Shown here: piece after piece, positions 21,042 through 25,747 of the stretch
How the letters are laid out: each line of letters starts with the position of its first letter
Position numbering within the stretch: the first letter of the stretch is position 1
Source: a virus
Strand: one strand, 5' to 3'
Length of the DNA: 64,000 nucleotides
Virus record (IMG/VR): IMGVR_UViG_3300042449_001328
Location: 25,690 to 89,689 of that record
The notes under the pieces: model-generated
Seen by the model: the letters and a program-made list of their open reading frames with translations, nothing else
What the model was told of the DNA's origin: nothing
Databases searched by the model: none
Translations under genes and position numbers: made by a program

Positions 21042-23369
21042 CTACACTATGTTTAAATCGCTCACAAACGACTTTAAAAGCTCATTGTTCTCTTTGAAGA
21101 ATTGATCTATCAATGGCTTTATTTTGCTGTTAAATACCTCTTTAGATACATGATTATCATCTTTGTGGTATGGAACACCAACGCTTTTATATTTTACAAC
21201 ATCTTCGCCTTCAACATTGACCGCATGATACTGCTCCAAAGCTCTGGCAAAACATTCACAAGTTCTGTTCACATAATCGCTATCTGTCTTTTTGTTCAAA
21301 TTATTTCTGAATGTATTGGCTATTTTCCCAGCAAGTGAATTAAAATCATCTGACGCATAATGTCTGTTTTTTGAATTACCCAATTGATTGTCTAAGAAGT
21401 GAGCAAATTCATGAGCTAAAGTGAACCCAAACTTGCCATTTTCTTTATTGTCGCTTACACCGATTGCTTTCATTGATGGGTAATATAAACCTAAAGCATT
21501 TCTGGCGTGCATCATTTTATCCCCACTGTGGCTTATCTTTAGGCCAAACTTTTTCGATATTGATGACCTGTCCCCAAATGATTTGTAAACTTCGTTCAAT
21601 GAATTTTTTATCTGCTCAATTTGCTGCTCTTTTATTTCTTTTCCGTTTTGCAATTTCACTTTCACTCCATGACTGTCAAGTAAAGTGTTTTTTGTCCCAG
21701 AGTCACCGTAACTGGTCTCCCTGCCTTTATCAAAACTAGTGTTGTTCTCTTCTCTCTGTATACGTAAATCTTTTTTCCTCCACTGCAATTGATCTCTAAC
21801 CTCTTTATACTCAATGACACAAGGATCATCGTAACTGTACGATCTTTTGCCCATATCAAAAGGGGTTTTGTAATCCTTGTTTACAAATTTTTTATACATG
21901 TCAAAATTAGATTTCAACATACTGTTTTCATCTAATTGGCTTATCCTTTTGCCAGTAGGCAATTGGACAGGGGAATTTTTCATGTCTGGTATCTCTGCTA
22001 TCTTTGCCTCTTTTGGCAAACCCTCCCATTGTTCCTTAGTGTATTTTTTCTTCTGTTTTTCAGAAAGCCTTTTATCATAATCAAATGGATAATACATTTT
22101 TATTTTTTCATCACTCCATTCTGCTACTCTGGCCAGTATTTTCTTTGTTTCGTTTTCTTTCTTTTTGGCAATGATCGCTTTTGCAGTTTTTTGATAATAG
22201 TCTTGCATTGCTACCATTTGGTCTATCTGAACAACTGCATATTCTGATATATGGTTGTTCAATAATGCTCTATTATCTTCTTCCCATTTATTTTTATCAG
22301 AGTATTCATATTTTTTGCCAGATATTTCTATTGCGTATCCATCTTTTTCATTGCCCCACACATTTGTTGGTGAATCTAACTCCAAGTAGCTGTACTTGCC
22401 ATCAAGTATATCCCTTTTCAACTGTTCGTTGTTCAGCTTATAAGAAGATGCTGTTTTATTATATCCATTTGTGGCCAACAAATAGGTATCATCACTTAAT
22501 TTCACATAATCAAAAACAAAATTGTCCAACTTCCTTCCTGCAAAAACTGCAAGGTTTATATCTGGACACCAATTTGGTTTAGGCTTATCCAAAATACCTT
22601 CTTGTTCCACAAGCTGTATGTCCATTTGACTAATCAAGGTATAATCCAAGGCTTGTATTTTTTCACCCGATCTGGTTGTAAATTCCTTTACCTCAATATT
22701 GCTTTTTTGCTCTCCCTGTTTCTCTATGGTGTTGCTTACTGGAAGTTCACCGCTCTCTTTGCCAAACAGTTCTTTAACTGCCTTAAACCTGTTGCTTTCA
22801 GTAACATTGTTAATTATTTCAGAAGAATTTTCAACTGGAGGTATGCTTATCTCGCTTTCTGGCACTAGGGTATTGTTAACTTCATAACCTGCTTTATTAT
22901 CAATAATTGATACACCACTTACCTCAAGTTCTTTTCCGTCAACCGTGACGTTAGTACTAACATCAACTAAATTCTTTAATTCTTTTGCTTGTTCTTTCTG
23001 TACAGTCTCTTGATATGTTTCTTCTGGCATTTTTGAAATCAAATTGGACATGATTTCTTCTTTTGCATTTAACGGGAAAATCCAACCCCCAAGGGTCTTG
23101 TTCCAACTACCTATACCAACATCTGATTTTATTTTTCTCAGCAATTCTAAATTAGCATAAGTGTTGCCTGTTATAAGCAAAGATTTATCTGAATATCTTG
23201 TAATTTTTAAATCTAGTTTTGTATCCAGGGATTCGCCTAGTGGTAAATTTTCTTCTATCTTATCAGTACCTACCTCTCGGTACTGATAAAATGTTTTACC
23301 GCCCCTCTGTACTTTTATGTATTCGTACCTTTTGCCTTTTTGGATAGTGTCTAAAACAGACTGTTCAAA
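21042..23369 (-). CDS. Large polyvalent-type protein with C-terminal LPD1-like HExxH domain; probably the -1 frameshift continuation of 23351-25747
   Basis: LAHEFAHFLDN...YVNRTCECFARALEQY; frame open 63 codons upstream of the tracked TTG start to the T9 run with no ATG. Confidence 0.7.
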   Translation of the reverse strand, partial: FEQSVLDTIQKGKRYEYIKVQRGGKTFYQYREVGTDKIEENLPLGESLDTKLDLKITRYSDKSLLITGNTYANLELLRKIKSDVGIGSWNKTLGGWIFPLNAKEEIMSNLISKMPEETYQETVQKEQAKELKNLVDVSTNVTVDGKELEVSGVSIIDNKAGYEVNNTLVPESEISIPPVENSSEIINNVTESNRFKAVKELFGKESGELPVSNTIEKQGEQKSNIEVKEFTTRSGEKIQALDYTLISQMDIQLVEQEGILDKPKPNWCPDINLAVFAGRKLDNFVFDYVKLSDDTYLLATNGYNKTASSYKLNNEQLKRDILDGKYSYLELDSPTNVWGNEKDGYAIEISGKKYEYSDKNKWEEDNRALLNNHISEYAVVQIDQMVAMQDYYQKTAKAIIAKKKENETKKILARVAEWSDEKIKMYYPFDYDKRLSEKQKKKYTKEQWEGLPKEAKIAEIPDMKNSPVQLPTGKRISQLDENSMLKSNFDMYKKFVNKDYKTPFDMGKRSYSYDDPCVIEYKEVRDQLQWRKKDLRIQREENNTSFDKGRETSYGDSGTKNTLLDSHGVKVKLQNGKEIKEQQIEQIKNSLNEVYKSFGDRSSISKKFGLKISHSGDKMMHARNALGLYYPSMKAIGVSDNKENGKFGFTLAHEFAHFLDNQLGNSKNRHYASDDFNSLAGKIANTFRNNLNKKTDSDYVNRTCECFARALEQYHAVNVEGEDVVKYKSVGVPYHKDDNHVSKEVFNSKIKPLIDQFFKENNELLKSFVSDLNIV

Positions 23370-25747: not shown

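Follow-up and report, generated by a model that had tools for sequence, protein, structure and literature searches.

The window analysed here is a stretch of 64,000 nucleotides (nt), positions 25,690 to 89,689 of the IMG/VR virus record IMGVR_UViG_3300042449_001328, and our subject is a gene within it that is divided between two reading frames at a run of nine T. The source is a freshwater phage genome, a single contig of 89,689 bp with 36.6% G+C, whose minus strand carries all of its long coding frames; positions are those of the window, and every part of the gene lies on the minus strand. The upstream part is an open reading frame (ORF) of 798 aa (23351..25747, hereafter the 0 frame) with a NUDIX domain at residues 458-576 (E 1.7e-14) and a GNAT domain at about residues 628-692 (E 3.9e-5 to Acetyltransf_1, the sole GNAT model above its cut-off). 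Its 3' end reads GAC GGT TTT TTT TTG AAC AGT CTG TTT TAG, with the TAG at 23353-23351, and its product ends in KKSEDGFFLNSLF, closing with GFFLNSLF and a stop five codons past the run. This T9 run (U9 in the mRNA) occupies 23367..23375 and is the genome's sole sense-strand homopolymer of at least nine bases inside an ORF. The downstream part is a stretch of 784 codons in the -1 frame (21042..23396) that opens right after a TAA at 23399-23397; it begins NKKVRRRFFFEQSVLDTIQKGKRYEYIKVQRGGKTFYQYREVG and ends ELLKSFVSDLNIV. No ATG, GTG or TTG occurs in its first 72 codons, the TTG at 23180 being codon 73 and the first ATG codon 116. Between the TAA upstream of the -1 frame and the TAG of the 0 frame, both frames are open for 43 nt (23354..23396), and any -1 shift within this overlap fuses the upstream and downstream parts. 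Sequence and translation agree on these points with the initial annotation, which had described a 798-aa frame ending at nine T and a TAG, and a -1 frame without ATG that opens just before the run and continues into a 712-aa ORF.

One extra base in the run (T10, or one added U in the mRNA) or a -1 ribosomal shift produces the reading SEDGFFFEQSVLDTIQK, followed by GKRYEY after a predicted cut site, in a fusion of 1,568 aa by our own count, and T8 would read GGT TTT TTT TGA, an immediate stop. In the 0 frame the run supplies the heptamers U_UUU_UUU and U_UUU_UUG, so that a -1 frameshift heptamer of the form X_XXY_YYZ is present inside the overlap. Another heptamer, A_AAA_AAG (ATA AAA AAG in the 0 frame, 23387..23393), lies two codons past the opening of the -1 frame and 12 nt before T9; it is a possible second site for a -1 shift that is probably incidental in a Lys-rich linker, and six such heptamers occur in frame in 79 ORFs (71 kb). 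Farther upstream, a sense-strand A8 run at 23897-23904, in frame at about residue 614 where the GNAT module starts, could be a second slippage-prone site, which would shorten the polyprotein. Decoding of the TAG as a sense codon was considered and rejected; the 0 frame then meets a TAA 11 codons on.

The 43-nt overlap is ordinary in itself and the 784-codon open -1 frame is not, given that open stretches in the other frames of the upstream ORF are 7-9 codons long on average and 36 at most. Homopolymers of at least nine bases number two in the 89,689-bp genome, with zero of at least ten. The other nine-base run (A9 on the coding strand, 48721-48729) overlaps the stop codon of the large terminase gene (48728-50269), and the probability of one of the two runs landing in the 43-nt overlap is about 1 in 1,000 by our own arithmetic. 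On the minus strand, 77 open frames reach 120 codons or more; their first start codon stands at a median of codon 4, against 72 for the -1 frame of the split gene and 32 for the next highest, and no other frame break of such a kind was found among them.

Domains and module boundaries

The downstream frame matches the last 280 positions of a 1,394-position PHROG profile (E 4e-61). An AlphaFold model of it from 41 sequences (mean predicted local distance difference test score, pLDDT, 82.6; predicted template-modelling score, pTM, 0.81) has a disordered leader (residues 1-23) and a beta-hairpin at residues 24-41 (KRYEYIKVQRGGKTFYQYREVG), and the layout continues with an alpha/beta domain from about residue 56, a helical middle and a C-terminal zincin-like metallopeptidase domain. 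The HExxH motif of this last domain (H662, E663, F, A, H666; 21399..21413) is invariant in 8 of 8 aligned sequences, as are E714 and E721, and H662, E663, H666, E714, E721 and Y723 are each at least 90% conserved in the 41 sequences. Pfam DUF6782 and M78 match the downstream frame below their cut-offs, and a sequence search of solved structures returned no match at E <= 1. With the C-terminal domain (21042-21950), Foldseek gave weak matches below the tool's threshold (E 2e-3 to 0.4) to M34-type gluzincins (the lethal-factor catalytic domain and Pro-Pro endopeptidases) and to collagenase peptidase domains, which for the modelled HExxH domain indicates a generic gluzincin fold and no more. Judged by sequence comparison, zincin peptidase module of a polyvalent protein is a safe label. 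The name LPD1-like given in the initial annotation fared less evenly: Pfam LPD1 (PF18796) has zero hmmscan match to the downstream frame even at E <= 10, but 22 of the 30 nearest protein-atlas clusters to residues 480-784 carry LPD1 in 14-96% of their members (best score 0.98). LPD1 is still a lead, drawn from this feature similarity.

Predicted prohead-protease sites have the form x-K/G, x-K/A or x-K/S, the slash marking the cut. Both sites that had been pointed out earlier, an IQK/G near the downstream start and an LLK/S at the protein end, are present: I-Q-K/G in the -1 frame at 23334..23345, 11 codons past T9, would open the downstream module, and L-L-K/S lies near the C-terminus at 21069..21080. 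Of 35 aligned relatives, 28 carry a hydrophobic-x-K-(G, A or S) motif no more than 14 residues ahead of the conserved domain; at the other end, L774 and K775 are invariant, and longer relatives carry further modules after the same motif. On the model, T9 lies within a disordered linker or pro-piece ahead of a conserved module boundary. A run in a disordered linker should leave FF and FFF both tolerable, and because it stands ahead of IQK/G, any -1 shift in the 43-nt overlap would give the same mature module after cutting.

Homologues and close variants of the split gene

A search limited to proteins of 1,373-3,920 aa returned eight long homologues with 39-70% identity, all of them continuous ORFs and seven with a NUDIX domain. 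The closest, P0002 (70% identity), reads KKSEDSFFLTNPILETIEKGKHYEY at the junction and DIKKSEDSFFLTNPILETIEKGKHYEY over a longer stretch. Aligned with this protein, the 0 frame of the window matches up to SEDGFF(L) and the -1 frame from there on, with 70% identity over 791 columns; P0002 is collinear across the junction, with a length equal to the T10 reading of the window. When the junction of P0161, a continuous close variant described below, was used as query, ten long relatives, further ones or overlapping with the earlier eight, matched across it. In the eight-sequence alignment K22, Y24, E25, F36, L63, Y68, S69 and K71 are invariant, and all precede the TTG at codon 73, which falls inside a strand predicted at residues 72-77 of the AlphaFold model. 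An HMMER search returned a database gene call, P0010, of 712 aa (query residues 73-784), which starts at this same TTG (23178..23180), inside the predicted strand and past the eight invariant residues. Alignment and model together make this call most likely a truncated protein, a gene-calling artefact. Because the long homologues are continuous, the close 1,456-aa forms read through, and conserved residues and a strand precede the candidate start, sequence comparison supports the view that a single head-cargo polyvalent protein gene comprises both the 798-aa ORF and the 712-aa database ORF, with an offset of one base between them. The earlier proposal that the T run joins a 798-aa polyprotein to the HExxH protein in a product of about 1,570 aa thereby gains support, both from the count of 1,568 aa and from the continuous homologues.

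Profile scans of viral, metagenome and genome contigs added 22 further loci with at most 58% identity. More distant relatives include fused forms (L002, L010, L012 and L013) and stand-alone forms with an ATG of their own and a short leader ending in x-K/G or x-K/A (P0015, Leptospira phage LinZ_10, L008 and L003-L005). At L005 (3782-10952), and in identical stretches of L003 and L004, the cargo modules are spread over three successive ORFs that overlap one another and differ in frame; the last two begin with an ATG and a short leader ending in I-I-K/GGKALPIGTKR or I-L-K/GGKALPIGTKR, and the same module chain is there divided into separate genes without any frame break. A tblastn search found Leptospira phages only, at 44% identity over the C-terminal third. 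The phage collection gave no blastn match to the junction region, single-protein scans of viral contigs gave none either, and the exact DNA pattern around the run was not found elsewhere, in searches from which records of this or very near genomes may be left out. When the last 99 residues of the upstream ORF served as query, a word-index search gave back nothing but the query.

Close variants were taken to be the eight members of a protein cluster at no less than 90% identity, with tract lengths inferred from protein sequences. The window's own protein pair is recorded on 4 contigs from three sources. P0160, found on 17 contigs, is an upstream ORF of 687 aa that lacks GNAT and has a different choice of modules; its identity is 97.9% to the N-terminal part of P0161 and 75.5% to the window ORF over 601 aligned positions, and its C-terminus is exactly KIKKSEDGFFLNSLF, the same out-of-frame tail GFFLNSLF before a stop. 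Its 712-aa partner, P0159, is found on 18 contigs, and a third 712-aa variant (P0158/P0163) lies on a 6,853-bp contig, its split being deduced from the 712-aa call alone. P0161 and P0162, on two other contigs, are continuous proteins of 1,456 aa that read SEDGFFEQFVLDTIQKGK and SEDGFFEQFVLDTIQKGKRYEY at the junction, with two Phe (GFFEQ) and therefore an in-frame run of at most T7. All five variants keep the downstream ORF, with only 1-8 differences over its 712 residues. They form two downstream sub-lineages, one of the window and P0158 and the other of P0159, P0161 and P0162; the split state is deduced in both, with direct evidence in the window and in P0160/P0159, and the fused state appears only in the second. 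A near-identical protein with three Phe (T10) was absent from the long-homologue search (top match 70%), the eight cluster members and the P0161-junction search.

T9 is probably a real, length-variable tract on this sequence evidence, because an identical miscount across different variants and many assemblies is unlikely. Two features that define contingency loci are found here: a simple repeat of at least six bases inside an ORF, namely T9, and length differences that switch the frame, judged from the proteins as GFFEQ versus GFFLNSLF and stop amid 98-99% identity elsewhere. The existence of close relatives with in-frame runs of at most T7 beside others with T9 fits the idea of the initial annotation that the peptidase cargo could be switchable. 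These near-identical phages have also swapped internal upstream modules, GNAT plus other segments in the window and KGG-type modules in P0160 and P0161, between flanks (window 23351-25747 compared with P0160 and P0161) that are 98-99% identical; from the sequences this looks like shuffling at x-K/G, A or S linkers.

Proposed slippage at the run and the alternatives

The explanation that we favour, with a confidence slightly better than even in it as a whole, is one cargo gene with a genuine T9 and a fusion product made by slippage. The gene would run from an N-terminal coiled region through small modules, NUDIX, GNAT and the linker to an LPD1-like module with the zincin HExxH peptidase at its end, and the prohead protease and major capsid genes follow shortly downstream of it. 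Ordinary decoding would halt five codons past the run and leave a 798-aa NUDIX and GNAT polyprotein. The downstream module, having no start of its own, would be made solely when an extra U enters the mRNA at U9 through backward slippage of RNA polymerase or, as a less likely route, when the ribosome slips -1 on U_UUU_UUU. After either slip, the prohead protease would be expected to divide the resulting fusion (about 1,568 aa) into its modules, cutting ahead of GKRY and at the other sites; the peptidase module would be scarcer than NUDIX and GNAT, amounting to a fraction of them, and packaging and injection would presumably follow. Over longer times the same tract would act as a DNA-level switch, at most T7 in frame versus T9 out of frame, because tract length differs among near-identical phages.

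We put polymerase slippage ahead of ribosomal slippage, and both ahead of a purely DNA-level switch; the slippage and DNA-level readings are not exclusive. Polymerase slippage takes first place because the window needs exactly one added U on a sense-strand T9 and no ribosomal stimulator was found. Slippage of bacterial RNA polymerase on runs of nine A or T is described as efficient in vivo (PMC5009743), the E. coli polymerase as favouring poly(T) and insertions and needing at least seven T (PMC6260861), and a run length of nine as the point where selection against runs becomes evident in many bacteria (PMC1088944). Two marks of a slippage site are present in the window: a run of about nine A or T in a coding region and one added base that joins two overlapping ORFs. 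As for the run and its offset among homologues, the tail recurs in P0160, 712-aa calls occur in P0158 and P0159, two close variants are in frame, and relatives of at most 70% identity are continuous or have their own ATG.

Several observations weigh against a slippage-made fusion. No stimulatory RNA structure was evident in the 90 nt downstream of the run (z -0.38), and a local hairpin at the run is unexceptional (z -1.41; 23 of 200 shuffles fold equally well). Every match at 21 of 21 loci with matches is in one frame, with no frame break, and no break stands before the N-terminal domain at any of the 9 loci where that domain could be examined. Sequence comparison places the frame break in none of the relatives of at most 70% identity, so the deep conservation typical of established programmed sites is lacking. 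The contig counts may include one genome held by several databases, or related sequencing runs. A frame-changing deletion could lie just after the run rather than in it, for example in a former TTG G, the FFL of P0002 being the window's 0-frame reading. The comparison of homologous loci, proposed in the initial annotation as a check, thus came out divided: the out-of-frame tail recurs in P0160, and relatives of at most 70% identity lack the split.

No Shine-Dalgarno-like motif was seen by eye upstream of the run. Downstream, a perfect 14-bp hairpin with an 8-nt loop occupies 23257-23292 on the minus strand, within the codons for the conserved peptide FYQYREVGTDK, and the 161-nt region containing it folds unusually well (z -4.66, 0 of 200 shuffles folding as well). 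As a stimulator (read 23292-23257 on the coding strand) this hairpin was rejected; it is about 75 nt from the run, and its palindrome is not kept where L002 encodes the same peptide.

The alternative that survives best, though we think it doubtful, is that T9 is the off allele of a contingency tract, such that a T9 genome packs no peptidase module, slippage of DNA to T10 or T7 restores it, and slippage of the RNA or ribosome is of no use. Near-identical phages do differ in the tract, with P0161 and P0162 in frame and the window and P0160 out of frame, the split is not kept in more distant relatives, and the nine-base A run of the phage T2 agt gene is reported to behave reversibly as a contingency locus, mutants having a frequency of about 7e-4 among the reads (bioRxiv 10.1101/2025.10.21.683753). 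Yet the out-of-frame allele is the commoner one, on 4 + 17 (or 18) + 1 contigs versus 2, and occurs in both downstream sub-lineages; every split variant retains the 784-codon frame uninterrupted; a U9 is expected to slip in transcription regardless (PMC5009743, PMC6260861); and T9 to T7 is not a single step, the intermediate T8 being an immediate TGA.

Sequencing or assembly error in the homopolymer, with a true tract of T10 and an ordinary continuous ORF of 1,568 codons, had been called an equally simple explanation in the initial annotation. It no longer is, and we now consider it improbable. Homopolymers of 9-10 bases are classic sites of miscounting, and with T10 the junction region would be exactly as long as in the 70%-identical homologue. 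Against this, the identical tail GFFLNSLF is found on the distinct variant P0160 on 17 contigs, the window's 798-aa product is recorded from three sources, the searches returned no near-identical protein with three Phe, and no other frame break was seen among the 77 long frames of the genome.

Two separate genes, with the downstream protein initiating at the TTG at 23180 or at a non-canonical leader codon, is a very unlikely arrangement: short-leader relatives exist (P0015, of 792 aa, starts 24 residues before LIK/GGKRYE, LinZ_10 has an ATG 16 residues before LILK/G, L003, L004 and L005 have ATG starts, and 11 of 35 aligned relatives have just 12-75 residues ahead of the domain), but the 72 codons free of ATG, GTG and TTG offer as sole near-cognate an ATC three codons before the cut site, a TTG start loses the eight invariant residues and splits the predicted strand, no sigma-70-like promoter, the one promoter type scanned for, lies on the coding strand in 22900-23900, and the nearest relatives are continuous through the leader stretch.

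Gene neighbourhood and related systems

Downstream of the split gene lie a virion protein gene and then the genes for the head maturation protease (18611..19477 on the minus strand, two genes downstream; phrog_1028, E 4e-32) and the major head protein (16276-17787, by profile match). Portal, terminase and tail sheath genes are also within the window; the portal gene frame (40779-42437) has a GTG directly after a stop codon and its first ATG at codon 93, and its true start is uncertain. The head maturation protease is presumed to be the enzyme that cuts the x-K/G, A or S sites. A parallel exists in phage T4, whose prohead takes up the internal proteins and Alt as cargo that the head protease trims at a short motif. 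Unlike these, which come from separate genes and have another cut motif, the modules here are strung in one gene with predicted x-K/G, A or S boundaries.

Polyvalent proteins of phages and conjugative elements have been described by Iyer et al. 2017 (PMC5512222), with the phage P1 head proteins DdrB and DarA and their C-terminal metallopeptidase among the examples. The split gene, when joined, resembles them in placing NUDIX, GNAT, a zincin peptidase and a candidate LPD-type domain in one polypeptide encoded among late and structural genes; it has at least two effector-type domains, its neighbours include protease, capsid, portal and sheath genes, and packing into the head is presumed. The word "frameshift" occurs 0 times in PMC5512222, in which respect the gene differs from that description.

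For the run itself, the nearest likeness is to mxiE of Shigella flexneri, where a T9 in the overlap of two ORFs is reported to acquire an extra non-templated nucleotide that fuses them (PMC1088944, PMC6260861). Both have a sense-strand T9 in an ORF overlap and a longer product from one added nucleotide, but mxiE encodes a bacterial regulator with measured slippage, whereas the phage head-cargo polyprotein is known from sequence, with no break in its relatives of at most 70% identity. Nested products of one gene also come from dnaX, through slippage on A9 in Thermus thermophilus and a -1 frameshift on A_AAA_AAG in E. coli, according to the same literature (PMC1088944, PMC5009743). Both motif types, homopolymer and A_AAA_AAG, stand in the 43-nt overlap, but in dnaX the slipped product is shorter and the sites are conserved, whereas here it would be longer and no stimulatory hairpin or Shine-Dalgarno-like element was found. 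Contingency loci provide a third comparison. The nine-base A run of T2 agt and hypermutable repeats in T2 and T4 are reported to flip frame reversibly by replication slippage and to give mixed populations (bioRxiv 10.1101/2025.10.21.683753). Close relatives of the window likewise carry in-frame and out-of-frame tract lengths. Unlike the T2 and T4 loci, where whole enzymes are switched and the evidence is selection and deep sequencing, the linker tract affects the distal module only and the variation is between assemblies.

The split gene would be a known kind of device, slippage as in mxiE and dnaX together with contingency loci, in a new place, the linker of a head-cargo polyprotein. By sequence comparison its frame break recurs within a small clade, where an in-frame form also occurs naturally, and lacks deep conservation. 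Our literature search found no paper joining slippage with polyvalent proteins in phages, and a second search, on programmed frameshifting in phage polyproteins cut by a prohead protease, gave none relevant among the papers listed, as judged by title and the opening of the abstract. We offer only tentatively the broader idea that homopolymer tracts in disordered linkers of head-cargo polyproteins are a selected, general phage device on two time scales, in which RNA polymerase slippage doses a distal injected module within an infection and replication slippage flips it between infections. The dominance of the split T9 allele in contigs, together with a coexisting in-frame allele of at most T7, fits such a device. 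Because cargo is made from the parent's genome, the proteins packed in a virion could, with such a device, disagree with its own genotype for one generation.

For annotation, about 1,568 codons spread over two frames make up the actual gene, and gene finders will mis-split such cargo genes. The existing in-frame and out-of-frame relatives are ready comparison strains for the role and the cost of the distal module. By the T tract of a linker alone, the phage may dose an injected peptidase against its NUDIX and GNAT partners, or switch the peptidase. If the pattern holds across phages, it would link transcriptional slippage, contingency loci and head-cargo polyproteins, which have so far been treated apart.

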